Below are positions 485-28,811 of a stretch of DNA of 64,000 bases, in pieces. Source of the stretch: Tubulanus polymorphus (taxonomy: Eukaryota; Animalia; Nemertea); NCBI RefSeq assembly GCF_964204645.1, contig NC_134032.1:558001-622000 (forward strand), read 5' to 3'. Position numbers and translations under genes: made by a program. The notes under the pieces are model-generated. The model saw only the letters and a program-made list of their open reading frames with translations, was not told the origin of the DNA and made no database searches. The stretch's first letter is position 1; each line of letters opens with the position of its first letter.

Positions 485-2599
485 TAAGATAAGATAAGAT
501 GAGATAAGATTTGCCTCCTATAAATCCATATTTGCTGCTTACACTCTTAACAAATGGTTCTTCAGGGGATTCTTCACAGAACCTACAGGTTCTTCGCAGA
601 ACCGTTGGCCCTTTGAATTGGTTTTTCACGACTTCGAGGGGAACTTGGTCGTGTAAAAGGTTCTTTGAACCCATCATTTAGTAATGATAGACCATATTTT
701 TTTTAATAGATTTTCCCTCTAGATTTAGAGATAGGGTCCATGTCAAAAACTCGACGAGGAGACACTGACAATTTGCAGCACTGCGTTTATAGTCTCTAAA
801 GATTTACAAGAAGCCCTAAAAAGACACTTTCTAGAACCCTTATTTGGATATATCTTAGGTTTTTCGAAAATCCCCTAGGTTCTTCAATGAACCTTTCATT
901 GCATAAGGGATGGTTCTTTGAGGAACCTTTGTCCGAGTGAATGGGGTTCTTTCAATGGGGTTCTGCGAAGAACTCTGTGGTCACAATATCTAGGAGTCAT
1001 ATAGAAGAGTTTAAGGAAAATAATGTAAACAGTTTGATAGATCAACTGTTTAGATGCTGACACACAAGGCCGGATGTTTGTTTACTGGTAGCGTGCGGAT
1101 TGGCTACCAACAGCTAAAGCGTAACAGATCAGTTTTATCATGGACTCTTAACTCGTTTTCAGAGTCCATGGTTTTATTAATATGAAAGATTGCAGACCAG
1201 CATTTAATCCACTGTTTCAGGATTCCAGTATGTTATCAGTGATAAACATGTTAAACTATCTGAGATTGATAACAGAGGAGCTGTTATTCCTATCAGGTAC
1301 GATGATCTGGGGACCAGCAGTTCAAAGGTTGGTTGACGATAACCTCAGCGGATAGATAACATAGTGACGATCGACTTTTAATTGTCTCTATGTCAACTAT
1401 CCACTGGTGAACCCGGGTTTGACAACTCTTGAGCAACTGGTAGTATTAGATATAATGATCACGCGCGTTAAGTGGTGGACTCTACACATCACGTCAGATA
1501 CATAAAGCGATAAGAGTAAGAAACAGCACTCACTGAGAGTCTATCATATGAACGCTATAATTTAATCCCCCCCCCCCCCGATTCAGGAGACAAAGTTTTT
1601 AAAGGAATATATGCTGCAAGAATATTGCGAATAATATATATATATATATATCAATATTGCGAATCCACTCGATTATGAATGGATTAAAACTTGTCACATG
1701 ATTACATCTGAAGACATAGATCAGTCGCGATACTTTCACATAAGATAGAGTGGAAATTCTGTCTTGAAAGCGCAAAACCTTTAAGGCAATATTCATAAAT
1801 CCTGCCGACATTCCTATAGTATCGGTATCAACCGATATCGGCGACCATATAATCAGAGTTGCTGATAAATATCATCCCAAGGCTGAAAAGCTTTCATCTC
1901 AAAAGACGACGGAATATCCATCCGTTTAAGTTTAATAAACTCACGGATATTCGATAGAAATTTTACCTGTGGAGAATTAAAAGATTTTAAAATCATTTGA
2001 GATCGGAACAATGTTGAGCTCCATGGGAACAAGCTGATGGTAGAAATCATCCTTACAAACTGTCTTACGATTTATGCAAAAGCAACACGATGTAAAACCT
2101 ATAACAAGATGGCGCAGATATTGGAGTAGAGATAATATAGGATGCTACAGGATGGACTAGTCAGCAGAAGGAAACGCAAGACTGGCCAATACGCGCGCGG
2201 CGTTGCACGGGTAGTACTCTTGTCACAATGGCGGCGGCAAGTTCGGCTCCTCCAAGGAAGAAAAGGAAGCATGAAAATGAAACTACTTCGGTCGTTGGGA
2301 CATTGCCCGACGGGGCAAGGGTCGATGGTACAAGGATTTTTTTTGGAGAAGAGAATGAGAATTAATTCCAAAAGGAAAATATTAGTCTCTGAAATAAGCA
2401 ATGACTTTCATAGAGAACAACCCTATAAACAATCAGTCGGACAGGGTCCAGTGAATAAATATTCTGGGGATTTGAATTAATATCGCAGGGCTTTGAATGG
2501 ATGCCATCATGATGTCAAGGCTTTCCTCCACTAAAAATCACTCATCAATAATATCCAGGATAACCTGATCGAACAATTCGCCGGACAAAATAGGGTACG

Positions 2600-3340
2600 G
2601 ATCTTGGAAATGGAATCTGCATTACGTGCTATGAGTGATTTACCTCGGTGCTAGAGGTTTCTGCACAGTATTCTAAGGAGGTACACAAATGGCTGGCCTG
2701 CGTACGGAATCTAATTGATGAGTATCGGCCGATCAATCTAGGACCATCGCACCTAATTTTCCAAAACAATCGGTACAATTCGAGATCTTCCTACGCATTA
2801 TTTTGGATTCACGATTTCATATTCGAATCCAGGGCATTACTATCAAGTGCGAAACGTTCTCTATACGAGGACTGACAAGGCGATATATATCAACGTCAAA
2901 TTTTCGATATCAGAAACCAGCACTATTTTTACCGACTATTCCGTTTCTGCAATGCCCGTGCCGGTCGATGCGCACAATTGCACCTTGATAAAAAACCTTC
3001 CAGACTATATCGGTGTCTCCCATTCTGGTGATTTTTATACGGAATTTAATTCCAAACAATTCCTACAGCGTGAAGGAAAGGGTATTAAAGTCTGTCCCAC
3101 TGCACTGCACTGTTCACGAGCCGTTCCGTCGTGTGCCAGTGGAACCATAAACACATAATGCAATTTTGCGATATAAGTTACCAGGAGTCAGGCTTGTTTG
3201 ACGGGGGGAGGAGAGAGGCCTCTTGGTCAATGGCCTGCCCTGATAAACCTGCACAAGCTTTCCTGTACCATGTGTCTGATACGATTACCATGCGGTTGCG
3301 GAATCACATCAGCCACATTCAAAGTTCAAGTGACGTTTCC
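2600..3340 (+). pseudogene. Degraded envelope (env/F-like) ORF fragment of an invertebrate Ty3/gypsy-like retroelement
   Basis: Joined frames read ..KWLACVRNLIDEYRPINL..YYQVRNVLYTRTDKAIYINVKFSISETSTIFTDYSVSAMPVPVDAHNCTLIKNLPDYIGVS..KVCPTALHCSRAVPSC..IMQFCDISY. The PVP/LPDY and cysteine spacing match my recollection of env-like ORFs of invertebrate gypsy elements. Multiple frameshifts. Confidence 0.55.
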
Positions 3341-3974
3341 ACATGTAACACTACTAGGGATAAAATAAGTAGTAGATTTCCAAATCTAAAGGGGAGATCA
3401 GAGACACAGAGAAATATTTCGTATCCGTTTTCTTCGTATTTCATTGTATTATTGTGCAATCGTCGCTGTTTGTCTCATCGGGATTTTCTTACTAGGAAAT
3501 GAATAATAATATCATAACAGCAGCTACGTATTGTTTTCAACGGTCGTTGAATTATGATCGAGCCCGTATTAGAATTATATCTATTTGAACTCAGTACAAC
3601 CTTAGTTTTGGGTTGCCATAACAAGAATTAGACAAACGCTCGCTGACGATGCAGTCTGGCGAGTGGCTAATATAAGGAGGGTCCCCGAAATCTAAGGGGG
3701 AGATCGGAGACACCAGAAGACGAAACTGGAGAATAGAAATAAAAGCTATATTTTTCACTGGAGAAGAATCTTCATTTACTATCAATAGGATTAGGATGGA
3801 TTGGTCAGTTTTACAGGGAAACGCTAGACTGGCCAATACGCTCGACGTTGCACGGGAAAGAGGGTCGACGCACGCAGAAGTGTACTGTAACGATAATAAA
3901 TACTCAAAAGAAGGATCGAGGAAATTCAGGATTCGAACCCGTTTGTTTTAAGAGTAATTGTTACATCTGTGATT

Positions 3975-6837
3975 ATATCGGCGACAATGTAATCAGAGTT
4001 GCTGATAAATATCATCCCGAGGTAAAAAAGCTTTCATCTCAAAAGATGACGGAATATCCATCGAGTTTTACGCGAGGATATTCGATAAAATTTGACCGGT
4101 GAGGAATGAATGATTTTAACAATGCGTTAAAATCAGCAGAGATCGAAACAATGTTGGAGCTCCCAGGTATAGAATTTTTCTAAGATAATCTTATACAAGA
4201 TTTATTTATTGATGTAGAAATTGAGGCAAGTACAAAAGAAAATGGGGAATTACTATATCGGATGATTTTTGATGATTATAATTTTAAAGAAACACATTCA
4301 TCTGAAGATTTAGATTCAATGATGATGATGAAATTTTAAATGTTCCTAGAGAATTGGATGTTTGTATAGTGCGTAAAGGTAATCTCAAAAGATGACAGAA
4401 TATAAATCAGGTTTAATCAACGCAAGGATATTCGATAGAAATTCAACCTGCGAAGAATTCAAGAATTTAACACTGCATTAAAATCTTCAGAGAACGGAAC
4501 AATATCGAGCTCTATCGGAACAAACTGACCGCAGAAATCATCGACCTGACAATAATACATAGTCAAAAGAAGGATTGTGGAGATTTCGGATTCGAACCCC
4601 TTTGTTAGAAATCAATCGATCTAAAAAAACCATGTTTATGGTCATCGATAGGAACAGGGGAGTTCAGATAAGAGAATGCAAGTGGATGGCCGAAGCAACT
4701 GAAATCCGACGAAGAAAAAATGGCGTATATAGCTGATTTTAAGGAAAGGAAAAGACCTCAACTATGTCAAAAACTAACGCTGAATTCAATGTGGGGGGGG
4801 GGGGGGCAGATGTCCTACTGATTCCCCTGGTGGTGAACACACTAATGTAGAAATACAAAATGATACAAATGGTTTCAGTCCTCGTAGCTACTTGCAAGCT
4901 GCTGCTCAGACGATTGTTTTTGCGTTTTTACAGGCTAACAGACATGACATATCGGCGACAATGTAATCAGAGTTGCTGATAAATATCATCCCGAGGTAAA
5001 AAAGCTTTCATCTAAAAAGATGACGGAATATCCATCGAGTTTTACGCGAGGATATTCGATCAAATTTTACCGGTGAGGAATGAATGATTTTAACAATGCG
5101 TTAAAATCAGCAGAGATCGAAACAATGTTGGAGCTCCCAGGTATAGAATTTTTCTAAGATAATCTTATACAAGATTTATTTATTGATGTAGAAATTGAGG
5201 CAGGTACAAAAGAAAATGGGGAATTACTATATCGGATGATTTTTGATGATTATAATTTTAAAGAAACACATTCATCTGAAGATTTAGATTCAATGATGAT
5301 GATGAAATTTTAAATGTTCCTAGAGAATTGGATGTTTGTATAGTGCGTAAAGGTAATCTCAAAAGATGACAGAATATGCATCAGGTTTAGTCAACCTGCG
5401 AAGAATTCAAGAATTTAACACTGCAATAAAATCTTCAGAGAACGGAACAATATCGAGCTCTATCGGAACAAACTGACCGCAGAAATCATCGACCTGACAA
5501 TAGTACATAGTCAAAAGAAGGATTGTGGAGATTTCGGATTCGAACCCCTTTGTTAGAAATCAATCGATCTAAAAAAACCATGTTTATGGTCATCGATAGG
5601 AACAGGGGAGTTCAGATAAGAGAATGCAAGTGGATGGCCGAAGCAACTGAAATCCGACGAAGAAAGAATGGCGTATATAGCTGATTTTAAGGAAAGGAAA
5701 AGACCTCAACTATGTCAAAAACTAACGCTGAATTCAATGTGGGGGGGGGGGGGCAGATGTCCTACTGATTCCCCTGGTGGTGAACACACTAATGTAGAAA
5801 TAAAAAATGATACAAATGGTTTCAGTCCTTGTAGCTACTTGCAAACTGCTGCTCAGACGATTGTTTTTGCGTTTTTACAGGCTAACAGACATGACATATC
5901 GGCGACAATGTAATCAGAGTTGCTGATAAATATCATCCCGAGGTAAAAAAGCTTTCATCTAAAAAGATGACGGAATATCCATCGAGTTTTACGCGAGGAT
6001 ATTCGATCAAATTTTACCGGTGAGGAATGAATGATTTTAACAATGCGTTAAAATCAGCAGAGATCGAAACAATGTTGGAGCTCCCAGGTATAGAATTTTT
6101 CTAAGATAATCTTATACAAGATTTATTTATTGATGTAGAAATTGAGGCAGGTACAAAAGAAAATGGGGAATTACTATATCGGATGATTTTTGATGATTAT
6201 AATTTTAAAGAAACACATTCATCTGAAGATTTAGATTCAATGATGATGATGAAATTTTAAATGTTCCTAGAGAATTGGATGTTTGTATAGTGCGTAAAGG
6301 TAATCTCAAAAGATGACAGAATATGCATCAGGTTTAGTCAACCTGCGAAGAATTCAAGAATTTAACACTGCAATAAAATCTTCAGAGAACGGAACAATAT
6401 CGAGCTCTATCGGAACAAACTGACCGCAGAAATCATCGACCTGACAATAGTACATAGTCAAAAGAAGGATTGTGGAGATTTCGGATTCGAACCCCTTTGT
6501 TAGAAATCAATCGATCTAAAAAACCATGTTTATGGTCATCGATAGGAACAGGGGAGTTCAGATAAGAGAATGCAAGTGGATTGCCGAAGCAACTGAAATC
6601 CGACGAAGAAAGAATGGCGTATATAGCTGATTTTAAGGAAAGGAAAAGACCTCAACTATGTCAAAAACTAACGCTGAATTCAATGTGGGGGGGGGGCAGA
6701 TGTCCTACTGATTCCCCTGGTGGTGAACACACTAATGTAGAAATAAAAAATGATACAAATGGTTTCAGTCCTTGTAGCTACTTGCAAACTGCTGCTCAGA
6801 CGATTGTTTTTGCGTTTTTACAGGCTAACAGACATGA
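3975..6837 (+). repeat. Direct tandem triplication of a ~950-bp mosaic unit (3975-4948, 4949-5895, 5896-6837)
   Basis: Each unit starts atatcggcgacaatgtaatcag and ends caggctaacagacatga; copies are near-identical with small indels. Confidence 0.95.
4672..4800 (+). pseudogene. Protein-primed family-B DNA polymerase fragment (Polinton/Maverick/adintovirus type); also at ~5620-5750 and ~6566-6695
   Basis: Translates ENASGWPKQLKSDEEKMAYIADFKER..QLCQKLTLNSMWG: the ASGWP..EEK..YI segment plus the KLxLNSxWG polymerase motif B, with an internal deletion. Confidence 0.75.
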
Positions 6838-7270
6838 TTATCAAATTTTCGGGAATTGTTTGAATAAAGGGTTTGCACTTTTTCATTCGACACAAACTGT
6901 AGATATTTCTTGGACCTCTCGGATTAAAGAAAACATATCTATTAGTGCTGGGTACTAGTTTTATATCAAAATCAACAAGCAAATCATCTTTGGGATTATA
7001 TAATTTTCGGGAATTATTTGAATAAAGGGTTTGCACTTTTTCAGTCTACACAAACTGTAGATATTTCTTGGACCTCTAGGCTAAAAGAAAACATATCTAT
7101 TAGTGCCGGGTATGATCGAAAAATTAGAAGAATTCAATGAATTCCTGCGCAGATCAGGAAAATTATTCTCGTTTAAAAAATTCCAATTATTGAGTTTATC
7201 ATTTGCTAATGTTATTAAACATTTGAATGAAATCGAGAAATCGCACCAAGACACTTTGAATTCGTTGGTT
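6835..7270 (+). pseudogene. Fragments of an uncharacterised helical protein family (variant 1; two partial copies)
   Basis: IFGNCLNKGFALF..DISWTSRIKENISISAGY..KKFQLLSLSFANVIKHLNEIEK; homologous by eye to 14882-15350 (IIFGDCLNRRFLMF) and 15602-15880 (KFQLLSLTFVDVVKYLPEIEK). Confidence 0.55.
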
Positions 7271-7654
7271 CATTTTCCCAGACCCTAAATTTAATGGTAA
7301 GCGCCCCAAATACCGAGGATCATGACCCTAACCCAATAAATGGAAGACGGTGATAGTTGGGTGGGCCGGGTTGACAAGCTAGGGGTAGCTTTATACTAGG
7401 GTGTCCTTGAGACGGAGCCGAAGGCGAAGGCCGGGGTCAGCGCCACCAGGTGGCTGACCTAATTCCCCGTGACCCCTCCGCGTCGCAAAGGTCAAAGGTC
7501 ACCCCCGGTTCACTCCCCGATGTCAAAGGGTCACGTGGAGGTGGAGCCACCTACCAAGGTCACGCCCGCCAGCGCCACCCAAGGTCAACCCACCCTTCGA
7601 AAGCCCCCCCAAGGCCCCTAGCAAGCCTTTGGGGGCAGGAGATAGGGGGGGTGA

Positions 7655-8406
7655 CCTTCACGGACAAGCGGGGTCCGGCAAAACGCTTTTAGGGAAGATA
7701 TTATTCCCTAGCAACATAGCTTCAATGATGCCGACTGATAGCGAGGGGGTGGGTGCCTGCGAGATGAGCACGAGACATCGCATATTTAAAGTCGATGATG
7801 CGGGTGACTCGTTTTGGAATAATAGCCGCATCCTTTCCATGGTGCTCGCTATGTTTCAATCGGAGTGGGAAGCGAAGGTGCACAGCACGAAGCAAAAGAA
7901 CCAAGCGTGCGTCACCTTCGTAACCACCAATGAGAAGACCCCCCTGCAACGCTTTGCGGGGGCTGTTGATACAGAGGCGGTGGAGAGGAGGTTCCTAGTA
8001 GTTAAATTCAAGGGTCAGATGAAGACCAATCGATTTAGGGCCCGAGTTATGCGAGCAGGTATATGTAAAACTGATTGAAAGAGCTTTGCTCGGTAGTAAT
8101 TTATTACAGATCAATACGATAAATTCACAGACAATGTTGTTACCACGCATGAATTAATGAGACAGTATGAAATAGAAAAAGAAATGGATACCGAATCAGA
8201 GGGGGGGGGGGGGGGGGGCAGAAGTTGAAATTGAGCCACCTGTTGTAACATTTCAAGAGCCTGAATCATTACCACAGGCGCAGGATATTGACATGCAACA
8301 GATTAATGCTATGTTAGAACAAATGGAAGCGAATAGAAACAGTTCGGAATTAACGGACTCTGTATTAAATGAAATTTTTGATTGGAATGTAAACAATGAT
8401 CAATAA
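7655..8406 (+). pseudogene. Parvovirus NS1/Rep-like SF3 helicase, C-terminal half (endogenous viral element)
   Basis: Walker A GQAGSGKT, Walker B KVDD, motif C VTTNE, Arg finger AVERRF. Continues after frameshifts into an acidic tail ending ..FDWNVNNDQ* (TAA 8404-8406), which overlaps AATAAA. Confidence 0.8.
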
Positions 8407-8529
8407 AAATATGATATAACTGTATTTCAATGTGTTGACCAAGTTAATTCGGATCGAGAAAAGGTGGGCCGGGTCGGCCGAGAGGAAAACTTTATACTAG
8501 GGAGCAGAGGATAGAAACAAAGGAAGGAC

Positions 8530-8592
8530 CCGATCCACTATGCATGGGAAGTAAAGAAGTGGGCCATGGACCAGATCCATGTTGATTTTGAC
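8530..8592 (+). pseudogene. Very short Ty3/gypsy-like integrase fragment
   Basis: With two small indels it reads PL.AWE..SGPWTR(I)HVDF, the PW.RIHVDF motif containing the first catalytic Asp of gypsy integrases. Confidence 0.45.
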
Positions 8593-8954
8593 GATATCTT
8601 GATTCATCTTAAATCAGGAAATAATATCACAAAAAAGAAGACGGGTATTGATAAGCAAAGAACTGAGCGAATATACCGCCGACTCCTGAATTGGCAATCA
8701 AAAAGCTATACTGTGGATGGAGTGGACCACGCAATGTACGGCGTGGAGATACTCCATGTCCCACATAAAGATGTGGAAGAAACCAGGATCGTCTATTTCC
8801 CTGGTGTTCGCTCCCTCATCATTCCATAAAGGAGCGAGGTGGAAGACATTCGAATGTTCTACGGCGCGAGTGCGGTGAACAATCTTGCAAATGTGATCAA
8901 TATATCGACAAAATATACGGGGTTCACACAAAACAATACGAACGTGATTCGTAA

Positions 8955-9677
8955 GTGGAAAAAAGACTTCGCGACATTACCACCGTTTTTAATTCATTGA
9001 TGGTGGGGTCGGCCGTCATGCCCGCAGCATTACGTATTCAGGTAGGAAAACTCGACGTGATGAGAAATCTAATCCCCGAAAGTGTTATCTTAAAAAAAGG
9101 AACGCCGATGCCGTGTACGTTGACGGCTTTAACGGACGATTTAACCGGGGGTCAGTTAGGGACGATTCGCGCTAATAGATTACGTTCTCTCAACTCGATC
9201 GCGAAAGAATTGGAGTCAGACGTGATTTTAACGAAAGCATCCGAAAAATTAATCTGCATGAACCGGGTGCAACTAGACAGTTCACCGGCGGAGGACACTG
9301 TCGACAAAGCCGAGCACACACGCCATTGGAATATCGTGAACGGTCTTTTCCCTCCAGCGTTTTATACCTGTTTATTTGGCGAACTGTACAATCCGGGCAT
9401 AATTACAACAGCCCATAAATTCTATGCAATTACAAATGTTTGTTTAAACTCGTTTCATCGTGAGCACGGGTTACAAAACCTAATCGACTTTCTGCGCGTG
9501 TTGGGTAAAAAACACAACAATAAAAAAACATCGAAAAAGGAATGTATCGCGTGGCACCGTCGAGACCAAGAAGCAATTTCACAAAATGCTTTTGACTGTT
9601 CTACCAGCGAAGAATGGTCCGACGCGTCATTGGACAGTGTTATTATCGGGCAACAACCTAATATTACACGTTTTTGA
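8955..9677 (+). CDS. Orphan intronless ORF (240 aa), probably from a DNA virus
   Basis: Long open frame with no introns, tightly packed tail-to-tail with 9788-10258; no family recognised; the 5' start is uncertain. Confidence 0.4.
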   Translation: MEKRLRDITTVFNSLMVGSAVMPAALRIQVGKLDVMRNLIPESVILKKGTPMPCTLTALTDDLTGGQLGTIRANRLRSLNSIAKELESDVILTKASEKLICMNRVQLDSSPAEDTVDKAEHTRHWNIVNGLFPPAFYTCLFGELYNPGIITTAHKFYAITNVCLNSFHREHGLQNLIDFLRVLGKKHNNKKTSKKECIAWHRRDQEAISQNAFDCSTSEEWSDASLDSVIIGQQPNITRF

Positions 9678-9787
9678 CTCGCTACTTATTTTATTTGTGC
9701 ACTTATGTTACAATGCGCGCCAGGTTACTGGTTGCATGTTGTTTTTTGAATACAATTATTACATACGTATATGATAATGAAATTTTT

Positions 9788-10258
9788 TTAGTTACTTTTT
9801 GTTTTACGAAAGTACATGTCTAACCAGTACAGCCAAATAAGAGTCTTGTAGTCAGTACTAGTATATTTACGGTCAGATATTTCATGGGTGTCTGGATCTT
9901 CCGATAACCACCGAAGCGAATACATGCCCCCCGTGTAGTATATATGGTGCGGCGCTAGTTCGCGTACAAATTGTGTTCGCTCTTCATCGTCCGGGTAAGC
10001 GGGGTCTTTAATTACGCTTACCCGATCTTCGTGTATTTCGTCTAAGAAATCGTCTACGCACCCAATATTTAAACGATGTAATACCGGGCACAGTTGTTGG
10101 CACAATTCTACATATACGACCAACCAGTGTTGTCTCTCCCATTCTCGGATCATAATATCCCAAAGGTTTGACGCCAACACTTTAGAATCACTCTGCAAGT
10201 TGTCTTCCCCCTTTTTTATAACCTCCAGCACGGTATTTGAATATGTAATATTAGCCAC
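9788..10258 (-). CDS. Orphan intronless ORF (156 aa), probably from a DNA virus
   Basis: Open frame convergent with the 8955-9677 ORF across a ~110-bp gap; no family recognised. Confidence 0.4.
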   Translation of the reverse strand: MANITYSNTVLEVIKKGEDNLQSDSKVLASNLWDIMIREWERQHWLVVYVELCQQLCPVLHRLNIGCVDDFLDEIHEDRVSVIKDPAYPDDEERTQFVRELAPHHIYYTGGMYSLRWLSEDPDTHEISDRKYTSTDYKTLIWLYWLDMYFRKTKSN

Positions 10259-10339
10259 GCCGCTGAAGGTTACTATTCGAATCGTCTAAAAGTATAATGA
10301 AAAGCGTGTACACGCTGAGAGGACATGCGTATAACGGGC

Positions 10340-11407
10340 CGGAAGTCCGTACTATCTCATACCTTGTAACGTGATGTCAGGAACTCATTGGGTCCTACTT
10401 GTAGTCGATAAAAATACAAGTAGGGTCCACGTCACGGACAACCTGGCTGACGTAGATACAAAGAAAACTGTGATCGAATACTTTAGAAAATACAATAACA
10501 CCGGATAAAAACTGGACTTTGCAGTTTATACCAGAAATTGTTGGTAAGAACCGGGTATTCCTGTGGTAACCTGGCTAACGTTGACACAAAGAAAACTGTG
10601 ATCGAATACTTTAGAAAATACAATAACACCGGATAAAAACTGGACTTTGCAGTTTATACCAGAAATTGTCGGTAAGGACCAGGTATTCCTGTGGTAACCT
10701 GGCTAACGTTGACACAAAGAAAACGGTATTCGACTACTTTAAAAAAAAACAATTTCTCATCGGATGAAAACTGGACTTTGCAGTTCATACCGGAAATTGT
10801 CGGAAACGACGGGTATTCGTGTGGTTTGTACGTAGTACGAAACGCGGATAGATATATGGGAAATGACACCTCCCATATATCGCAAGCACAATATTATAAC
10901 GATAGTTTGTATTTCGATAAAGTTGATTACTTTATCGAGACTATCGAGAGTCATTCAACTTTAAACTCAAGTAGCAGTGACTGTATTTTACTGTCGGACA
11001 ACTCTACCTATTTCAAAAATGATACCGACAGTGAAATTTGGATGAAATATGGAATGACTGTAACCAACTACGCAGCGCCACTGGATCGATGGGCTGCGGG
11101 CGTAGATCGGGGTTCACGTCACGAAATTTATGAACAATATAAAAGGGAAGTATATTTTGCAACACTGCAGGAGCCCATTGTACAGCATGTTCATACTGAC
11201 ACTCACGAAACACCAATTTCTGATGATGTAATCGATGTTGATTCAGATCCCGATGATTCCGATGAAGGTATTGTTGGGATGTCGGACTCGGACTTTCAGT
11301 ATGAACGTAGTGTCCAATTATTTAAGAAAACAAAGAAAAAGGAAAAATATTTCCCTGTTAACCGCATATTTAGACTCGCTAAAAAGTCAAAGAATGAAGA
11401 AGTCTAA
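10340..11407 (+). pseudogene. Ulp1/C48-like (clan CE) cysteine protease, disrupted by an internal 128-bp tandem duplication
   Basis: YYLIPCNVMSGTHWVLLVVDK..VHVTDNL..NDGYSCGLYVVRNA gives the His, Asp and Cys catalytic motifs. Repeat units start at 10441, 10569 and 10697. Acidic then basic C-terminus. Confidence 0.7.
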
Positions 11408-11819
11408 TTAATATTATGGAGTTGTATCCTGTTTCACAGTCAAATTGATAAATATAAGTGCAATCTGTTTGGGATAGTTTATTCCTTATTTCATTAAGAT
11501 TATTTTGGGAAGGATATCTATATTTTATGTCGCTAGTAGGGAAATCTATATATCGTTCGGTAGAAGACAAGGGAAATGATCAGAGATTGATGAGGCTAGA
11601 ATTAGACTTTCATGATTTGAAAAATCCGCACTTATATAAATGTTGTAAATCAGGGTAGCTGTAGTATGTGTAACCCGAGTGGGTCTTAATATAGTTGGGA
11701 TCAAATTTAAATTCATTTTCCGAAATTCAGCTGTATTTTTATGAGTATGTATTTTTCAGAAGGTCTAAATTTTGGTTCATGTCGAGAAGCCAGTTGAGCT
11801 ACTTCCCGCACATGGGAAA

Positions 11820-12345
11820 CCCAAGCCAACCTTGCCCTTTTCTATGAAATCAAGTAAGCGTCCAGCTGTGGCAACTAATATATTGCAGCCTGCCACTACA
11901 TTTCTTAGTTGATGGCCAACAGATGCACCTCCATAGACTACTACTGCTCGCAAAATGGTGCCGATAGCAAACTTTTACGCCTGCTGGTGTATTTGGATAG
12001 CCAGCTCCCTGGAAGGAGCCACAACTAAACACTGTGGCTCCTGAACCTGGCTAAAGGCTGAAGATTCCAAACCACTGCCGATCATAGCTGTTATAATTGG
12101 GAGAAGAAATGCGGCCGTTTTCCCGATCCAGTTTGCGCGCATACCATCATATCACGGCCATTCATGATGATAGGAATTGAATATTTCCGAACTGGTGTCG
12201 GTTTGTGGTATTTTGCTCTTTTAACATTTTGCATACACCGATCGTAGAGCCCTGCTTGCTCAAATAACTCGATTGGCGCCGGTTTATTCGTACCGCTTAC
12301 TTCCACCGGTATCTTATCATACTTATCAAAGTTGATACTAGCAAT
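11820..12345 (-). pseudogene. vasa: Intronless (processed) vasa/DDX4 DEAD-box helicase fragment
   Basis: INFDKYDKIPVEVSG..KPTPVRKYSIPII..GRDMMVCAQTGSGK/TAAFLLPII..SAFSQVQEPQCLVVAPSRELAIQI..A*KFAIGTILRAVVVYGGASVGHQL..ILVATAGRLLDFIEKGKVGL. One-base frameshift after GSGK, in-frame TAA, no introns over ~525 bp. The QEP, (R)KF and INFDKYD motifs favour vasa over PL10. Confidence 0.85.
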
Positions 12346-12633
12346 GCAGCATGGCTAAGAACAGCAATAGATTGGGACTTGAAACAAACGGACAAAGACA
12401 CACGTAACGGGACAACATACACGGACCCAGACTTCCTGACACAGAAAATGAGTTATAGACAGTACGACTTGGGAAGGGGAACAATAACCATGAACATACC
12501 GACATCGGTATTAAGGAGCGAAATAACGGACAGTACAGACCCGACTAAAGTAATTAGGGCAGTAGACATAGGGAGAAATGACAGTTGGTACGACACGGCC
12601 TTCTACCCACAATGGAATAGCGACTATTCCATG
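12346..12633 (+). pseudogene. Orphan A-rich coding fragment, possibly parvovirus-like capsid
   Basis: Open frame AAWLRTAIDWDLKQTD..YDTAFYPQWNSDYS, Thr/Asp/Tyr-rich; abuts vasa on one side and an env piece on the other. The capsid call is a guess. Confidence 0.25.
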
Positions 12634-12859
12634 ACTGGAATAAAAAACATTAAAAACATTCACCACTTGATCTCTCATCTGCGAGATACCTATTCTGCAT
12701 TTTAGCTGCGGGACTTTTTGTGGGATGGTTTCCCAAATAAGAAATATAAAGGCAATCACTATTTTAGGACGCTAGTTGATTTCCAATATAAGTTAAGCGC
12801 GTTAGTCCACATTTGATACGGGAATTGTAATTTACAGTTTTGGTAGATGAGAACATTGA

Positions 12860-13020
12860 ATCGACTTGTAGCGACCGGTCGCCATCTCTAGAATGAAAGA
12901 ATGGTAAAAAAGGAATCATCACCAGTCCGAACTATCCAGACAACTACGATAACAACCTGAACTGTAACTGGAAGATCGAAACACCTGAAAACACGAAGGT
13001 TAAAAAGGAAATTGTCCATC
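12860..13020 (+). pseudogene. CUB-domain coding fragment
   Basis: STC..GIITSPNYPDNYDNNLNCNWKIETPENTKV, the canonical N-terminal CUB motif. Confidence 0.8.
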
Positions 13021-13748
13021 GAACTGGGGACAATTGTATTTCAGGGCGAGAGGTAGCGCCATCTAACTTGTAAGTAACGGGGGACTCCGATTGGCTAATC
13101 GCAAGCCAATCAGACCCTTTCTCTGTTGTCTTTTCTTTCTCTTTGTAGACAACCATCTCAATAGGTTTAAATATAATAACTGTTTCTTTTAAAATTCGAT
13201 ATGATGTAATAATTTTAGGATTTTATAGCATTGATGTATAGAAGATACTTATTCTTAGATAGCTTAAGCGCATGGGACATTATGATCCGTATATGCTCTG
13301 CACTGTCCATATTCTTCAATAATATATAATGAATATCAGCCGATTCAGTTGTCATTCCAGAAAGCCATAGAAAATAGGATAGTTATTGTCGAAATTCCGC
13401 CACGCACAACTGAATTGATGCCAGATTCCGTGCTCGTGGTACTTATGTCTAGTGTTATGGAATAATTAAAAGCTTTCTAATAAAACCCGGAATTAGATAA
13501 CGATAAATTTATAGAATAAATGCAGGGTACAAACCGTTCTCTAGAGAGCGGGAGAGCAACATTGGTGGCAACATCGTCCGGAGCGGAGGCAGCGCAACAC
13601 GCGGGGTAAGGGTGATATGATGTTGGCAGTTCAGGCAATATAACCATTGAATCGTATATCAACCTGAGTTGAGTCGTTAGTTTATTTTTGGTCAGGTGGC
13701 AAAATCAAACGGAACCAGAGCAGAGGCAGCGTAACACGTGAAGATGAG

Positions 13749-14030
13749 GTGCCAGAAATTATGGATATCGCATCTCAAGAGATCGATGGCCAAACTATTG
13801 AAAAGCTTAAAAAACATCTGAATTACTATCAAGAATTAGCAACAATTTTGGACACAATAATAAGGAATAAACAATCATCTGTTCAAGAATTACCGAAACG
13901 ACCAACCCTAGATCTAAAAACATTGTTAGGACTTAAAGAAACTAGAACCAAGATAAGTAGTCACGAATGAACTTCATGAGTATTTAAAATCAAAATTAAC
14001 GGATGAAAGAGATTTGGCAAACTTTAAACA
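13749..14030 (+). pseudogene. Uncharacterised helical protein family, variant 2
   Basis: KHLNYYQELATILDTIIRNKQSSVQELPK..LKSKLTDE aligns by eye with 14976-15190 KHLEYFQEMASILEKIIENKRSRVASLPK..KSKLTNE. Confidence 0.55.
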
Positions 14031-14394
14031 CAAACTGTAGACCGCATTAGAAACAACAGTGTTGGAGGTGCGGGCGCTCATTACAACTATAGGGGTCGAG
14101 AAAATAATGGAAATCATCATGGCATTTCCCGTTTAAGATGAACACTCATATAAATGTGGACGGTTTTCCAAGCAAATTGGAAGAAGATATAACAACAGCA
14201 TTCGGCTGTTTAGAACGTAAAGACAATAACTGGGTACAAAGCGAAGAAAGCCTGTCTAAGGAGCTCAGTGATTCAAACTGATTGCGGCAATGAAAAAGGA
14301 CATGTGCGAAGACCGTGGAAGGGATGCTGGGTTCCATACTTTGAAGCTGCTCTTTGAAAATATTAAATCGCCTGACCACAAACTCGGCATTAAA

Positions 14395-14690
14395 GTGATC
14401 TTGATGCTTTGAAACGTCTGAGCTCGGGTCTGACCTCAAACCAAGTTAAAAAACTGGGGAAAACGTTGGACTCCTTCGTGAATTCTAGCAATGCTCGGAT
14501 TGAAAATGCCACGACCGGAATAAAGAACACACACCGACTGATTTCCGATCTGCGAGATGCATAAACTGTGCGTTCGTGGCTGCAGACCAGCGTGGCAGGG
14601 CTACGTGGGACGTTTACGTCAGATGATGGCAGACTTTGCTTGTTAATTAAATAACTGGCAGTTTCGTATGCGCTAGTACATACACAAGAC
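14395..14690 (+). pseudogene. env-like heptad-region fragment (related variant at ~12631-12760)
   Basis: LDALKRLSSGLTSNQVKKLGKTLDSFVNSSNARIENATTGIKNTHRLISDLRDA versus MTGIKNIKNIHHLISHLRDTYSAF at 12631. Confidence 0.4.
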
Positions 14691-15880
14691 GTATTAACAC
14701 TGAACCAGAGACCGCTCCCTCAAACAGACATATACAGTTATAATATCTATCCCATTTCGTGATATAATTCAGAGTTTACAGTTCGCGAGTTAAATGTAAA
14801 TATGAAACCTTTAAATTTATTTATATTTAGTATATGTTTTAGATAGCTACAGTTACCACTAATATCTTTTAGATTAATAAAATGTCATACGCATCAAGAA
14901 GCGATGTCGATACTCGAGATACTCTTGATACTCTTTCTCAGAGGACAACCGAAATGGAAGTCGATCCAGTAGAAATTGGAAGAAGTTCCAAAACATTTAG
15001 AATACTTCCAAGAAATGGCATCAATTTTAGAAAAAATAATAGAAAACAAGCGATCTCGTGTGGCATCATTGCCAAAATTGACAGCAACGGATATAAAGAT
15101 ATCGTCGGGGTTAAAGGAATCAAAAATTAAAAAGAAAATGAGTGGAGAAGAGTTGAATGATTTTTAAAAATCAAAATTAACAAATGAAACAGATGTAAGC
15201 TTTAAAGAAATAGAAGGTGTAACATCATTTGCTGAAATAACTGTTTTATTTAAAAAAAACTATAAATCTTTATTATGTAAAAAAGCAAAACGCTTATGGG
15301 ACCATATCATTTTCGGGGATTGTTTAAATAGGAGGTTTTTAATGTTTAACATTCACAAGACGTATTAACCCTGAACCAGAGACCGCTCCCTCAAACAGAC
15401 ATATACAGTTATAATATCTATCCCATTTCGTGATATAATTCAGTGTTTACAGTTCGCGAGTTAAATGTAAGTACAGTTTTCGTTGTTATTGAGGCTATTA
15501 AATATGAAACCTTTAAATATATTTAAGCGCATTAATTTATATTTGGTATATGTTTTAGAGATAGCAAGAGAGTTACCACCGATATCTTTTAGATAAATAA
15601 AATGTCATACGCATCAAGAAGCGATGGAGAAACTCCTTCTCAGGGATCAACCGCAATGGAAATCGAACCAATAGAAAAAGGCGTAGAAGCACAAGAATCA
15701 CAAGAAAAGATAGACGAAGAAACTATACAAGAATTTGTGAAAAAAAACATTTAGACTACTCTAAAAATTCCAATTATTAAGTTTAACATTTGTTGATGTA
15801 GTCAAATATTTACCGGAAATTGAAAAAATGTTTGAAAACAATTCAGAAATTAAAGATTTCTGGTCGAAATTATAAATTCA
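14690..15880 (+). pseudogene. Two tandem, diverged gene copies (MSYASRSD...; variants 3 and 4), each with a duplicated upstream region
   Basis: Shared ~115-bp upstream block at 14693-14800 and 15354-15470; ATGs at 14882 and 15602; frameshifted bodies. Confidence 0.6.
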
Positions 15881-16019
15881 AATGATGTATTGGTTGAAAG
15901 TCATATATACAATTACTTTCCCAATTATCTGACTAAGACATTTCGTCGATTTCTATCGGGTTGTTTCCATTGCCATATTAAGCATTTTTAAATTTCCAAG
16001 GCAGCAGCAGTTTCTGTAT

Positions 16020-16505
16020 ATGAGCAGCAGGTGGAAGACTAGAACACGTTAACAACAGGAATCATTACTAATCCGAACTATCCAGACAACTATGATAACA
16101 ACCCGAACTGTAACTGGAGGATTGAAACACCTGAAAACAGGGCTGTTTTTTAAATTCTAACACAACCTGAACTGTAACTGGAGGATTGAAACACCAGAAA
16201 ACAGGGCTGTTTTTTTAAATTCTAACACAACCTGAACTGTAACTGGAGGATTGAAACACCAGAAAACAGGGCTGTTTTTTAAATTCTAACACAACCTGAA
16301 CTGTAACTGGAAGATTGTGGCACCTGAAAACACGCATGGTAAAAAATAAACATTTTAAAGAAATTTTCAATTGGATATGTTAAGATTTTATAGTGTTGAG
16401 AACATCGACTCGACCTGTAGCACCGGGTACCAATCTAGAATATTAAAGTGGTATTATAACTAGTCCTGGTTATCCAGACAACTATGATAACAATCTGAAC
16501 TGTAA
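16020..16505 (+). repeat. CUB-domain fragments with a ~63-bp minisatellite derived from them
   Basis: TNPNYPDNYDNNPNCNWRIETPEN followed by ~4 units of acaacctgaactgtaactggaggattgaaacacc..aaaacagggctgttttttaaattcta; a second CUB start (SPGYPDNYDNNLNC) at ~16445-16503. Confidence 0.8.
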
Positions 16506-16591
16506 TATCATATATATATCATTATTAATTTCAAGAACTGTTATTTATCAAGTGTGTATCTGTATGAATTTTATGATATATCTTCTTTGTT

Positions 16592-19500
16592 CATTATCGT
16601 CACTAACTGGAGACAACTTATTTATCGCTTTATTATTTATTGCTTATCGTGTGGAAATATATATATGAAACCAGCCTCTGAAGATGACGATATACAAGGT
16701 CTGCAGTTAAACATTGCAAAATGAACCATTTTCCGTGGAATCTAGTGACATCAGCGACGATGAGGGGAATCAGTCGATAAGTCACTCCGAATAAGGGCAC
16801 CGGTAGATGCCAGTGCTAATTTTTTGAAAATTGTCTCTTCCGTCTCTGAACTTGTCTCTTCCGACGACACGAGCGAGACAAGGGAAGCCGACAGGGAAGT
16901 TGATGAACAACCGATTGACAAAAAATAAAACGCACAAAAATATAACAAAGACGTTACCTTCGGGATTTGATGCTGAAATTAACGCTCGACTAACCGGCGC
17001 GATTGAAGGCCTATGAGATGAAGGAACGATTGCGGACAACATCGGCACAAAAGTCGAGCGATTTATGCGGTGTTGCATTAAAGAGAAAAAACTTATTTCG
17101 AAGTATGAACGAGTTCTGGGGGAATCGTCGGCGAAAGGGCATACGGAGATTTCATTATTCGGTTTTACTATCGACTACTTTCGCAACGCTAGGTTGATCT
17201 GGTTACATGCTAAACAGGGGGTCGAATTACAGCCAGAATTATCTAGTAAATTATACGCCTGCTGCTGATAATGTATCAGACACGAAGGATGCGGAAATCT
17301 TGCCGACTAAGAACGACATCAAAACCAGAATTACCGAGCTAAATTAAGGGCAGAGACCATCTGATGAGAAGCGAACAAGTGTATTTATTATCTTGAAAAC
17401 CTATTAACAATAATGATATTAAATATTCAGCATCATATGAATTCGTCAGAAAGTCTAGATAAAGTGTAGCGCAGGCATTAAAATGTCATTAGTTCAATCA
17501 ATGAAAGTTTTACGGACTAAGATAAATTGATGTAGGCGAAATTTATACATAACAGAAACATAAATAAAGCAGTACAGCAGATTTTAAACAGAATTTTTGA
17601 GACAATTTTTGACCTCATTTCGTTGTATACATCGCGTTAGAAATCATCGGCAATTTCCGTCGATCTCCGTCCAGTTTCGAGGGAGGTAGTAACTATAAAT
17701 ACTGTTTGGAAACATGGCCCCACGATCAGTAATCATCTGGACTCCTAACGACACAGAACTCAATATTATTTTGTCGCCGTGCGGTAAATGAGTTTCCTAT
17801 TACACAATGGAAAATATTACCAGTTATCTCGACTTGTTAACGGGTACCGAGTTGATGGATACTGACGAGTTCTTTACGGATATCGACACGATCGATATTG
17901 TCGATACGATAACGGACTTTGATTTAACGCAATTTCAAACAATGCTCGAAAACGAAGGTGAGATTGGGCTGATACTCCCAATGGTGATACACCAAACGCA
18001 TTTAACCGAATACGATTCACCCTACAATCAACACATATTGGACACGATTATAGACAAGGCGTTGTTATTACACTTCGAGAACAACTTAACCCCACAAGTG
18101 TTGTATGAGTTCGATTCTAATACGAGGGGCCCTCGCATATGAAATTTTTAACCATGTACGAAAGGGCTGTTAAACAAACATATCAAGAGGCTGTTGATGA
18201 CAAGTCTACCGATTCGAAAACATTTACGATCACGGATTTTTTGCAGAAATTAAAACGAGAGGTAAACAAACACACAAAATCTGGAAGCAACTACGGTGAC
18301 ATATGTGGGGATACACTACAAAAGGTAGCCACGTTTATGCAAGCGTTCATACCGGGATGTGACAAATTGACACTAAATAAAAATACCGTGTCCGGTTTAT
18401 TCGATCAACTATTGAAATTAGCCCATACCAAAGAACGTGTCTGGCATTTGTTGATGTATGGGATCAAAAATTGCGTCTTAGAAGAAAACAGCGTACACGA
18501 AAAAGCCCGTAATCTATTAGGTTTCGGGCTCTGTAAATTTCGCCTCTTTTCCGAAAACTACGGTCTCCAGCTGACTACAACGGGTATCACGGCAAATCAT
18601 TTAATGGCGTTAAGTAGGGATTATTGCGCCATGTTAGCGTTCAATTTCGAGGTTTCATCGTGGTGGTACGCGGACAAAGTGTTACACCTCTTACCGATCG
18701 AAATAGTCATGTGGGATGTATTTCGGTCGGGAGGGGAAATGGACGCCAGGAAATGGACGCCGTACTGACATTTGTTACCGCGTACCATCAGATGAAAATC
18801 GACATTGTTGATGAACACCAACACGAACATTGGCATTATTGTCATTAACTGGAGACAGTGAACATTTAACTTATTTATCGCTTTATTATTTATTGCTTAT
18901 CGTTTGGAAATATATATATATGAAACCAGCCTCTGAAGATGACGATATACAAGGTCCGCAGTTAAACATTGCAAAATGAACCATTTTTCGTGGAATCTAG
19001 TGACATCAGCGACGATGAGGGGAATCAGTCGATAAGTCACTCCGAATAAGGGCACCGGTAGATGCCAGTGCTAATCTTTTGAAAATTGTCTCTTCCGTCT
19101 CTGAACTTGTCTCTTCCGACGACACGAGCGAGACAAGGGAAGCTGACAGGGAAGTTGATGAACAACCAGTTGACAAAAATATAACAAAGGCGTTACCTTC
19201 GGGATTTGATGCTGAAATTAACGCTCGACTAACCGGCGCGATTGAAGGCCTATGAGATGAAGGAACGATTGCGGACAACATCGGCACAAAAGTCGAGCGA
19301 TTTATGCGGTGTTGCATTGAAGAGAAAAAACTTATTTCGAAGTATGAACGAGTTCTGGGGGAATCGTCGGCGAAAGGGCATACGGAGATTTCATTATTCG
19401 GTTTTACTATCGACTACTTTCGCAACGCTAGGTTGATCTGGTTACATGCTAAACAGGGGGTCGAATTACAGCCAGAATTATCTAGTAAATTATACGTCTG

Positions 19501-22500
19501 CTGCTGATAATGTATCAGACACGAAGGATGCGGAAATCTTGCCGACTAAGAACGACATCAAAACCAGAATTACCGAGCTAAATTAAGGGCAGAGACCATC
19601 TGATGAGAAGCGAACAAGTGTATTTATTATCTTGAAAACCTATTAACAATAATGATATTAAATATTCAGCATCATATGAATTCGTCAGAAAGTCTAGATA
19701 AAGTGTAGCGCAGGCATTAAAATGTCATTAGTTCAATCAATGAAAGTTTTACGGACTAAGATAAATTGATGTAGGCGAAATTTATACATAACAGAAACAT
19801 AAATAAAGCAGTACAGCAGATTTTAAACAGAATTTTTGAGACAATTTTTGACCTCATTTCGTTGTATACATCGCGTTAGAAATCATCGGCAATTTCCGTC
19901 GATCTCCGTCCAGTTTCGAGGGAGGTAGTAACTATAAATACTGTTTGGAAACATGGCCCCACGATCAGTAATCATCTGGACTCCTAACGACACAGAACTC
20001 AATATTATTTTGTCGCCGTGCGGTAAATGAGTTTCGTATTACACAATGGAAAATATTACCAGTTATCTCGACTTGTTAACGGGTACCGAGTTGATGGATA
20101 CTGACGAGTTCTTTACGGTCGATATTGTCGATACGATAACGGACTTTGATAACGGACTTTGATTTAACGCAATTTCAAACAATGCTCGAAAACGAAGGTG
20201 AGACTGGGCTGATACTCCCAATGGTGATACACCAAACGCATTTAACCGAATACGATTCACCCTACAATCAACACATATTGGACACGATTATAGACAAGGC
20301 GTTGTTATTACACTTCGAGAACAACTTAACCCCACAAGTGTTGTATGAGTTCGATTCTAATACGGGGCCCTCGCATATGAAATTTTTAACCATGTACGAA
20401 AGGGCTGTTAAACAAACATATCAAGAGGCTGTTGATGACAAGTCTACCGATTCGAAAACATTTACGATCACGGATTTTTTGCAGAAATTAAAACGAGAGG
20501 TAAACAAACACACAAAATCTCGAAGCAACTACGGTGACATATGTGGGGATACACTACAAAAGGTAGCCACGTTTATGCAAGCGTTCATACCGGGATGTGA
20601 CAAATTGACACTAAATAAAAATACCGTGTCCGGTTTATTCGATCAACTATTGAAATTAGCCCATACCAAAGAACGTGTCTGGCATTTGTTGATGTATGGG
20701 ATCAAAAATTGCGTCTTAGAAGAAAACAGCGTACACGAAAAAGCCCGTAATCTATTAGGTTTCGGGCTCTGTAAATTTCGCCTCTTTTCCGAAAACTAAG
20801 GTCTCCAGCCGACTACAACGGGTATCACGGCAAATCATTTAATGGCGTTAAGTAGGGATTATTGCGCCATGTTAGCGTTCAATTTCGAGGTTTCATCGTG
20901 GTGGTACGCGGACAAAGTGTTACACCTCTTACCGATCGAAATAGTCATGTGGGATGTATTTCGGTCGGGAGGGGAAATGGACGCCGTACTGACATTTGTT
21001 ACCGCGTACCATCAGATGAAAATCGACATTGTTGATGAACACCAACACGAACATTGGCATTATTGTCATTAACTGGAGACAGTGAACATTTAACTTATTT
21101 ATCGCTTTATTATTTATTGCTTATCGTTTGGAAATATATATATATATGAAACCAGCCTCTGAAGATGACGATATACAAGGTCTGCAGTTAAACATTGCAA
21201 AATGAACCATTTTTCGTGGAATCTAGTGACATCAGCGACGATGAGGGGAATCAGTCGATAAGTCACTCCAAATAAGGGCACCGGTAGATGCCAGTGCTAA
21301 TCTTTTGAAAATTGTCTCTTCCGTCTCTGAACTTGTCTCTTCCGACGACACGAGCGAGACAAGGGAAGCTGACAGGGAAGTTGATGAACAACCAGTTGAC
21401 AAAAATATAACAAAGGCGTTACCTTCGGGATTTGATGCTGAAATTAACGCTCGACTAACCGGCGCGATTGAAGGCCTATGAGATGAAGGAACGATTGCGG
21501 ACAACATCGGCACAAAAGTCGAGCGATTTATGCGGTGTTGCATTGAAGAGAAAAAACTTATTTCGAAGTATGAACGAGTTCTGGGGGAATCGTCGGCGAA
21601 AGGGCATACGGAGATTTCATTATTCGGTTTTACTATCGACTACTTTCGCAACGCTAGGTTGATCTGGTTACATGCTAAACAGGGGGTCGAATTACAGCCA
21701 GAATTATCTAGTAAATTATACGTCTGCTGCTGATAATGTATCAGACACGAAGGATGCGGAAATCTTGCCGACTAAGAACGACATCAAAACCAGAATTACC
21801 GAGCTAAATTAAGGGCAGAGACCATCTGATGAGAAGCGAACAAGTGTATTTATTATCTTGAAAACCTATTAACAATAATGATATTAAATATTCAGCATCA
21901 TATGAATTCGTCAGAAAGTCTAGATAAAGTGTAGCGCAGGCATTAAAATGTCATTAGTTCAATCAATGAAAGTTTTACGGACTAAGATAAATTGATGTAG
22001 GCGAAATTTATACATAACAGAAACATAAATAAAGCAGTACAGCAGATTTTAAACAGAATTTTTGAGACAATTTTTGACCTCATTTCGTTGTATACATCGC
22101 GTTAGAAATCATCGGCAATTTCCGTCGATCTCCGTCCAGTTTCGAGGGAGGTAGTAACTATAAATACTGTTTGGAAACATGGCCCCACGATCAGTAATCA
22201 TCTGGACTCCTAACGACACAGAACTCAATATTATTTTGTCGCCGTGCGGTAAATGAGTTTCGTATTACACAATGGAAAATATTACCAGTTATCTCGACTT
22301 GTTAACGGGTACCGAGTTGATGGATACTGACGAGTTCTTTACGGTCGATATTGTCGATACGATAACGGACTTTGATAACGGACTTTGATTTAACGCAATT
22401 TCAAACAATGCTCGAAAACGAAGGTGAGACTGGGCTGATACTCCCAATGGTGATACACCAAACGCATTTAACCGAATACGATTCACCCTACAATCAACAC

Positions 22501-24281
22501 ATATTGGACACGATTATAGACAAGGCGTTGTTATTACACTTCGAGAACAACTTAACCCCACAAGTGTTGTATGAGTTCGATTCTAATACGGGGCCCTCGC
22601 ATATGAAATTTTTAACCATGTACGAAAGGGCTGTTAAACAAACATATCAAGAGGCTGTTGATGACAAGTCTACCGATTCGAAAACATTTACGATCACGGA
22701 TTTTTTGCAGAAATTAAAACGAGAGGTAAACAAACACACAAAATCTCGAAGCAACTACGGTGACATATGTGGGGATACACTACAAAAGGTAGCCACGTTT
22801 ATGCAAGCGTTCATACCGGGATGTGACAAATTGACACTAAATAAAAATACCGTGTCCGGTTTATTCGATCAACTATTGAAATTAGCCCATACCAAAGAAC
22901 GTGTCTGGCATTTGTTGATGTATGGGATCAAAAATTGCGTCTTAGAAGAAAACAGCGTACACGAAAAAGCCCGTAATCTATTAGGTTTCGGGCTCTGTAA
23001 ATTTCGCCTCTTTTCCGAAAACTAAGGTCTCCAGCCGACTACAACGGGTATCACGGCAAATCATTTAATGGCGTTAAGTAGGGATTATTGCGCCATGTTA
23101 GCGTTCAATTTCGAGGTTTCATCGTGGTGGTACGCGGACAAAGTGTTACACCTCTTACCGATCGAAATAGTCATGTGGGATGTATTTCGGTCGGGAGGGG
23201 AAATGGACGCCGTACTGACATTTGTTACCGCGTACCATCAGATGAAAATCGACATTGTTGATGAACACCAACACGAACATTGGCATTATTGTCATTAACT
23301 GGAGACAGTGAACATTTAACTTATTTATCGCTTTATTATTTATTGCTTATCGTTTGGAAATATATATATATATGAAACCAGCCTCTGAAGATGACGATAT
23401 ACAAGGTCTGCAGTTAAACATTGCAAAATGAACCATTTTTCGTGGAATCTAGTGACATCAGCGACGATGAGGGGAATCAGTCGATAAGTCACTCCAAATA
23501 AGGGCACCGGTAGATGCCAGTGCTAATCTTTTGAAAATTGTCTCTTCCGTCTCTGAACTTGTCTCTTCCGACGACACGAGCGAGACAAGGGAAGCTGACA
23601 GGGAAGTTGATGAACAACCAGTTGACAAAAATATAACAAAGGCGTTACCTTCGGGATTTGATGCTGAAATTAACGCTCGACTAACCGGCGCGATTGAAGG
23701 CCTATGAGATGAAGGAACGATTGCGGACAACATCGGCACAAAAGTCGAGCGATTTATGCGGTGTTGCATTGAAGAGAAAAAACTTATTTCGAAGTATGAA
23801 CGAGTTCTGGGGGAATCGTCGGCGAAAGGGCATACGGAGATTTCATTATTCGGTTTTACTATCGACTTTCGCAACGCTAGGTTGATCGGGTTATATGCTA
23901 AACAGGGGGTCGAATTACAGCCAGAATTATCTAGTAAATTATACGTCTGCTGCTGATAATGTATCAGACACGAAGGATGCGGAAATCTTGCCGACTAAGA
24001 ACGACATCAAAACCAGAATTACCGAGCTAAATTAAGGGCAGAGACCATCTGATGAGAAGCGAACAAGTGTATTTATTATCTTGAAAACCTATTAACAATA
24101 ATGATATTAAATATTCAGCATCATATGAATTCGTCAGAAAGTCTAGATAAAGTGTAGCGCAGGCATTAAAATGTCATTAGTTCAATCAATGAAAGTTTTA
24201 CGGACTAAGATAAATTGATGTAGGCGAAATTTATACATAACAGAAACATAAATAAAGCAGTACAGCAGATTTTAAACAGAA
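16592..24281 (+). repeat. Tandem array of a ~2.22-kb unit, 3.4 copies (starts ~16605, 18847, 21071, 23297)
   Basis: aactggagac..ttatttatcgc recurs every ~2225 bp; copies differ by SNPs and indels; the last copy is truncated at 24281. Confidence 0.95.
17807..18848 (+). pseudogene. Orphan virus-like gene (reconstructed ~341 aa); further copies at ~20046-21072 and ~22272-23298
   Basis: Acidic N-terminus, intronless, TATAAA at ~17694. Copy 1 has +2 and +14 bp insertions; copies 2 and 3 have a different frameshift and a TAC>TAA stop. Confidence 0.6.

Positions 24282-28738: not shown

Positions 28739-28740
<2 letters not shown>

Positions 28741-28806
<66 letters not shown>
28741..28806. repeat. 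(TA)n microsatellite
   Basis: Perfect TA run. Confidence 0.95.

Positions 28807-28811
<5 letters not shown>

Follow-up and report, generated by a model that had tools for sequence, protein, structure and literature searches.

The window, i.e., the whole stretch of 64 kb that was analysed, carries on its minus strand, at 12342-11826, a 517-nt internal piece of a vasa/DDX4 gene, surrounded by a collage of open frames, domain fragments and repeats (Table 1). In the six-frame translation, the DEAD-box N-terminal domain of this piece is split over two frames. The first part (12342-12118, 75 aa) matches 19 PDB sequences at E values up to 1e-8; the best is the Vasa-like protein of Bombyx (4d25, E 3e-24), followed by Ded1 (E 2e-23), Drosophila Vasa and DDX3X, and the bit scores (87 for Bombyx Vasa-like, 85 for Ded1, 74-75 for DDX3X) leave a narrow margin for vasa over DDX3/Ded1. 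The second part (12118-11822), which consists of 99 codons with one TAA, matches 140 proteins at E values up to 1e-20; among the 120 of these that were listed, the named proteins are mostly DDX4/vasa, and the best single-domain matches are DDX4/vasa proteins (58-66%). By sequence comparison, the piece is closer to Vasa/DDX4 than to DDX3/Ded1, and in a tree of 39 rows, built without a DDX3 outgroup, it falls among non-arthropod animals, with no closer placement, outside the starred bivalve and vertebrate clades. Both parts are colinear with residues 292-464 of oyster DDX4, the only portion covered, and this is the one vasa match in the whole window. The piece ends about 10 codons before the DEAD motif; compared with oyster DDX4, it does not encode the complete two-domain helicase with that motif, and given that it stops short of the motif, a working helicase is impossible.

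Table 1. Coordinates of the vasa piece, its internal features and its named neighbours in the 64-kb window.
Feature	Positions	Strand	Evidence
C-terminal third of a ~500-aa protein family, on the strand of vasa, 1.5 kb away	9788..10285	-	4 matches among 1.84 billion, best E 5e-46, 57%
Ulp1/C48-type protease piece	10350..10490	+	PF02902, E 3e-4, 21.2 bits vs cut-off 20.7
49-nt piece with counterpart elsewhere in the genome	11782..11830	.	23 reads go loose at 11782, 19 at 11830
5-nt microhomology: first 5 nt of next vasa exon = end of neighbouring piece	11826..11830	-	mRNA-type contig down to 11826; other-locus reads up to 11830
Whole 285-nt vasa exon with motifs Ia, GG and Ib and a premature TAA at 11977-11975	11831..12115	-	protein search, reads
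Exon-exon junction, phase 0, between T and A codons after motif I	12115..12116	-	X7 reads, X1 record 6
3' part of vasa exon with Q motif and motif I, starting mid-exon	12116..12342	-	PDB match E 3e-24; read continuation past 12342
1-nt deletion in A run, frameshift in motif I	12117..12118	-	extra letter in X5/X6 contig
Neighbouring open frame	12343..12705	+	12454-12601 has a ~85% counterpart elsewhere (X1 record 8: 148 letters, 22 differences, 4 gaps)
CUB-domain piece, animal-type extracellular domain	12906..13004	+	PF00431, E 5.5e-9
Second CUB-domain piece	16052..16147	+	E 1.2e-7; related DNA near 16450 and 26198

Most of the frames of at least 120 aa in 2700-25300 lie on the plus strand. The frame at 9788-10285 belongs to a family whose member in L001 adjoins a 1271-aa ORF with a weak match to the herpes major capsid protein (E 0.018, under the cut-off), and L001 also contains a weak integrase match (E 0.025); given this capsid-like and integrase-like gene neighbourhood, the family is probably of viral origin. 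In L001, the gene of the ~500-aa family, the 1271-aa ORF and a tyrosine-recombinase-like ORF occur together at 680-7889, possibly as an undescribed herpes-like element. In tblastx comparisons with the window, L001 and L002 match at 9809-10174 only and share no gene order with it. The block 8955-10285 consists of two convergent frames and looks like a DNA-level capture, and a weak match to a VapE-like ATPase, under the Pfam cut-off, is found at 7473-8075. Among 83 segments of 62 aa or more without a stop (1500-4950, 6400-18900 and 24200-27400), the Pfam scan yielded no reverse transcriptase, integrase or env family; it gave six matches at E values up to 0.05, none above the cut-off (two DEAD, VapE-like, CUB, WbqC and VPS28). 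In a separate Pfam run on six short segments, three had no useful match, and reverse transcriptase, integrase and env families were again absent. Searches of viral contigs with the collage frames were blank, so that no flanking piece is directly identified as viral; PHROGs comparison of 21 segments gave four weak matches, none informative, and no homologues of 18121-18765 and 7650-8075 were found among longer proteins. Further protein-atlas and PDB sequence searches on neighbouring frames were blank or uninformative, as were the searches for a family or homologue of 12343-12705, and the predicted folds of collage frames are of low confidence (pLDDT 42, and 32 for 12343-12705), with no BFVD match at E values up to 0.001.

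Ten sequencing runs are available under one species label; six contain part of the stretch, and four were aligned to 11400-12900. X5 and X6 come from one sample and are taken to be transcriptome-like because of their small run size and unbroken vasa contig, the library type not being on record, whereas X7 consists of raw genomic reads from another sample and study than X1. Two transcriptome-like runs aligned to 6850-16700 yielded no more than the vasa contig, a fragment of 107 nt and 37 nt from a different vasa-like contig, and they are silent on expression and on the source of the CUB pieces.

In X5 and X6, one contig each extends unbroken over 11826-12342, with 23 substitutions and one gap (95.4% identity), and continues into further vasa sequence on either side, the window piece corresponding to letters 203-720 of a 2168-nt contig. 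At 12116, the alignment breaks off for 12 X7 reads from the parent gene (median 71 loose letters) and for X1 record 6 (107 unaligned letters); in minus-strand orientation, the loose letters of the reads are a pyrimidine run followed by CAG, i.e., are acceptor-like. Another 12 X7 reads and one X1 contig leave the alignment before 11829 with the donor GTATGT (boundary 11831/11830). Given that genomic reads of the parent break on an acceptor at 12116/12115 and on a donor at 11831/11830, one intron is precisely missing from the piece; the donor of this intron does not appear among the 15 of 17 loose ends listed. The piece continues 5 nt into the next vasa exon (11826-11830), and this second exon junction is weak evidence because two of the five letters match the donor anyway, which leaves three informative ones. 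Past 12342, the X5/X6 contig, seven X7 reads and one X1 contig carry the same 30 letters, so that no intron starts there. The piece derives from the spliced form of host vasa. The first-pass annotation, which described an intronless, disabled vasa fragment on the minus strand at 11820-12345 and took it for a processed copy, is thus upheld on both counts, with the bounds now at 12342-11826 and the parent intron absent from the window; a host vasa without introns in this interval, named there as the finding that would speak against processing, is at odds with the intron at 12116/12115. The annotation also proposed that germline mRNA had been reverse-transcribed into the locus. The source is indeed spliced vasa mRNA. 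Two samples, each from a different study, carry the piece as inherited DNA, so a germ line must have acquired it; the reverse transcription step is one that we infer. In X9, which lacks the parent vasa mRNA, a different vasa-like contig aligns over 11847-11883 (37 nt, four differences), with other sequence on both sides, and points either to a second paralogue of vasa or to mislabelling of the run.

The piece is a disabled copy, with one frameshift and one stop, and is real in two samples. It is extremely improbable that it represents an assembly artefact or RNA contamination. X1 may be the source of the window itself, and the X1 contig over the inner junction extends by 30 letters on the shorter side, one below the bridging threshold, but genomic reads of X7, from the other sample and study, cover 30 of 30 bins, none of the seven informative for 12117 has the extra letter, and four of nine keep the window letter at 11975, within the stop (11977-11975). 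Furthermore, X1 record 5 matches the window with no gaps, and X1 records 2 and 7 bridge both outer junctions with no differences.

The piece is truncated at both ends and, ending mid-CDS, is not followed by a poly(A) run at its 3' end; unlike L1-type processed pseudogenes, it has neither the 3' end of the mRNA nor a poly(A) tail. Downstream lies the 49-nt neighbouring piece, in which 22 of 31 reads have 7 additional nt at 11816; it shares 5 nt with the vasa mRNA match and only 2 with vasa genomic sequence. This 5-nt microhomology is seen at the 3' junction alone; the source beyond 12342 is not among the 15 of 17 loose ends listed. Of the two flanks, 11782-11830 and 12454-12601 are matched by different sequences elsewhere. 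A splice-bounded origin, suggested by a 5' end that comes after CAG in the mRNA and by a 3' end that coincides with a donor, was rejected because the downstream piece has no preceding AG in its source.

We propose that the piece is best read as a dead retrocopy produced by template switching of a reverse transcriptase, to which we assign a probability of roughly 0.6. Under this scenario, the enzyme would have switched to spliced vasa mRNA and left it at the 5-nt microhomology, and the chimeric copy would have integrated in the germ line and then decayed; we infer switching by an LTR-type reverse transcriptase followed by neutral decay. The missing intron, the 517-nt match of mRNA type, the overlap at 11826-11830 with a piece from another locus, the outer junctions bridged without differences and the lack of poly(A) all argue for this reading. 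Tan et al. (2016; PMC5131818) describe the same features for LTR-mediated retrocopies, which are partial at both ends, lack poly(A) and combine several parents per locus; of 29 junctions, 25 show microsimilarity, with a median of 6 bp, and one family switches near exon-exon junctions. The vasa piece resembles these in being partial at both ends, in the lost intron, the absence of poly(A), the microsimilarity at one junction, the position of a junction near an exon boundary and the chimeric neighbours, and differs from them in that it is inverted relative to most neighbours and lies among virus-like DNA, with no LTR flank established. The points that weigh against template switching are that no flank is identified as an LTR retrotransposon and that Pfam shows no reverse transcriptase, integrase or env in the segments scanned, that microhomology is confined to one junction, and that the convergent frames at 8955-10285 suggest capture at the DNA level.

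The orientation of the piece bears on the same question. A single round of switching among sense mRNAs would give all pieces the same orientation, so that the opposite strand of vasa calls for either a further event or a partner RNA in antisense. No such step is needed if a free vasa cDNA or an RNA-templated patch was pasted, in random orientation, into a DNA break of an insertion-tolerant locus by microhomology-mediated end joining. The 5-nt overlap fits this route too, and the convergent frames and high-copy repeats nearby suggest patching at the DNA level; nevertheless, the flanks have different counterparts, unlike one interrupted element, and a reverse transcriptase would still be required to make the cDNA, and we consider this origin unlikely, though worth keeping in view. 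Copying between two RNAs of like polarity, or a cDNA block inserted either way, would suffice, so that the orientation needs no selection.

The substitutions relative to the mRNA-type contig are compatible with template switching followed by neutral decay, provided that the parent is taken into account. Of 22 listed substitutions (23 in total), 12 are silent, and the other 10 alter a codon or turn it into a stop; with ~118 silent and ~389 other sites, pN is 0.026 and pS is 0.10. The silent changes are too many for a lone neutral copy lineage (p 0.001), which argues against template switching alone, whereas the pattern fits a neutral copy paired with a parent under constraint (p 0.08). Given this silent excess over the copy-only expectation, change on the parent side or divergence of the source allele has to be invoked as well. 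Twelve of the 23 listed differences fall within 12117-12241 and none within 12014-12116 (post hoc p 0.003), a clustering for which gene conversion or a mosaic source is possible on the basis of the alignment. Letters at 11939-12013 and 12307, for which X1 has the parent state and no other, are probably merged variants and were excluded. The excess of silent changes, along with virus-like neighbours within 1.5 kb, would also be in keeping with a history in which a DNA virus or a mobile element had captured a vasa cDNA as a gene of its own and the block had been endogenised later. This is very unlikely given the 95.4% identity to the mRNA-type contig of the host itself and the fact that only an internal piece of 172 codons is present, with sharp junctions and without start codon context or the DEAD motif.

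Vasa acts in the germ-line piRNA pathway, and the locus could, as in the model of the first-pass annotation, be a putative one-strand piRNA cluster that is read on the minus strand, in which viral pieces would be kept antisense and host pieces would survive only in the sense, non-silencing orientation. The strand distribution of most long frames agrees with this, as does the composition of the minus strand of 1500-24300, which is T-rich (33% T, 27% A) compared with 31000-64000 (29.5% and 30%), and an antisense copy would match vasa well: among 492 windows of 26 nt, 155 are identical and 470 are within three differences. A co-oriented cluster of EVEs and TEs with an antisense precursor is known in Aedes (PMC7161354). 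Nevertheless, a single confirmed host piece has even odds of lying on either strand by chance, and the T skew also follows from co-oriented coding pieces. The claim that vasa is opposite to the viral pieces holds for most long frames, which are on the plus strand, and not for the coding frame at 9788-10285, which shares the strand of vasa; with this probably viral frame on the minus strand and the CUB pieces on the plus strand, there is a probable exception on each side, and the rule of viral pieces on plus and host pieces on minus is weakened. We therefore regard selection for orientation in such a cluster as quite unlikely.

Drosophila AT-chX, invoked in the first-pass annotation as a precedent, is, like the present piece, a non-coding, vasa-derived sequence among repeat fragments. 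It runs opposite to the proposal in its orientation: its piRNAs are mainly antisense to vasa (~50-fold), which is tolerated because identity is only ~76% (PMC6486647). AT-chX comprises 26 copies, in which two exon pieces stand in reverse order, whereas here there is one copy in the window, with 95.4% identity and with exons colinear and spliced. Pseudogenes in primate piRNA clusters are likewise host-gene copies in putative small-RNA loci that raise the same question of orientation; they lean slightly and non-significantly toward the reverse orientation, with little or no sign of selection (PMC6461890). By analogy, the best model for the type of locus would be the flamenco-like EVE cluster of Aedes aegypti, which is likewise a patchwork of co-oriented repeats and foreign fragments, with tandem duplications at a local scale (PMC7161354). 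An antisense precursor and phased piRNAs have been demonstrated for the Aedes cluster, whereas for the collage they would be predictions of the cluster model; furthermore, the collage pieces look like genes of DNA viruses or elements, and the host is a non-insect by the tree.

A further, speculative and rather improbable extension is that the collage is a one-strand cluster that writes new memory through recombination by reverse transcriptase with its own minus-strand precursor, such that mRNAs of germ granules, including vasa, would enter in the sense orientation, which is harmless, by mechanism or by selection, and pieces of viruses and repeats would stand antisense. If true, this would amount to a built-in filter of self and non-self in a little-studied invertebrate, and should the locus prove to be such a cluster, a fragment with 95% identity to an essential gene of the germ line would provide a sharp test of whether self-targeting orientations are purged. 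Taken alone, the vasa piece is an ordinary dead retrocopy, of a kind already known. Within the collage, it is a read-verified tracer which shows that a spliced RNA stage and joining at a microhomology lie behind at least one fragment, and thus bears on the construction of loci made of foreign fragments. In the literature listings searched, which include few subscription papers, neither this locus nor any vasa retrocopy in a cluster of this type is described.

Several other features of the collage are repetitive. The segments 14746-16061 and 13430-14087 belong to a high-copy genomic repeat, and joints reaching back ~704-749 nt suggest a tandem unit elsewhere; X1 depth over 14746-16061 is 1200-3200, compared with 14-31 for window-specific contigs, a depth that was not used as copy number. 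A degenerate coding similarity links 13797-13952 with 14976-15131, and some of the "viral" pieces of the collage may be resident repeats. The CUB piece occurs at four places on the plus strand (12906-13004, 16052-16330, 16446-16505 and 26189-26497), its 3' part being amplified as a 64-67-nt tandem. Tandem duplications at 3975-6837, 10440-10825 and 16592-24281, with periods of ~950, 128 and 2226 nt, respectively, are 95-100% identical and hence young. Two frames may resemble genes of mobile elements: the short plus-strand frame at 4657-4800 (repeated near 5620 and 6570) is similar by motif to the protein-primed DNA polymerase B of Maverick-type elements, with a blank Pfam result, and that at 2757-3158 resembles an envelope-like protein of LTR elements, with a weak match to DUF7335 as its only Pfam match. 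The related plus-strand stretches at 24330-25250, 26500-27000 and 28690-29400 look LTR- or promoter-like by eye, with TATA-like boxes and TGG-starting words that resemble primer sites, and are 72-94% identical in short blocks by self-BLAST. At the edge of the window, 60-482 forms an imperfect palindrome of ~420 nt that is 67% self-complementary.
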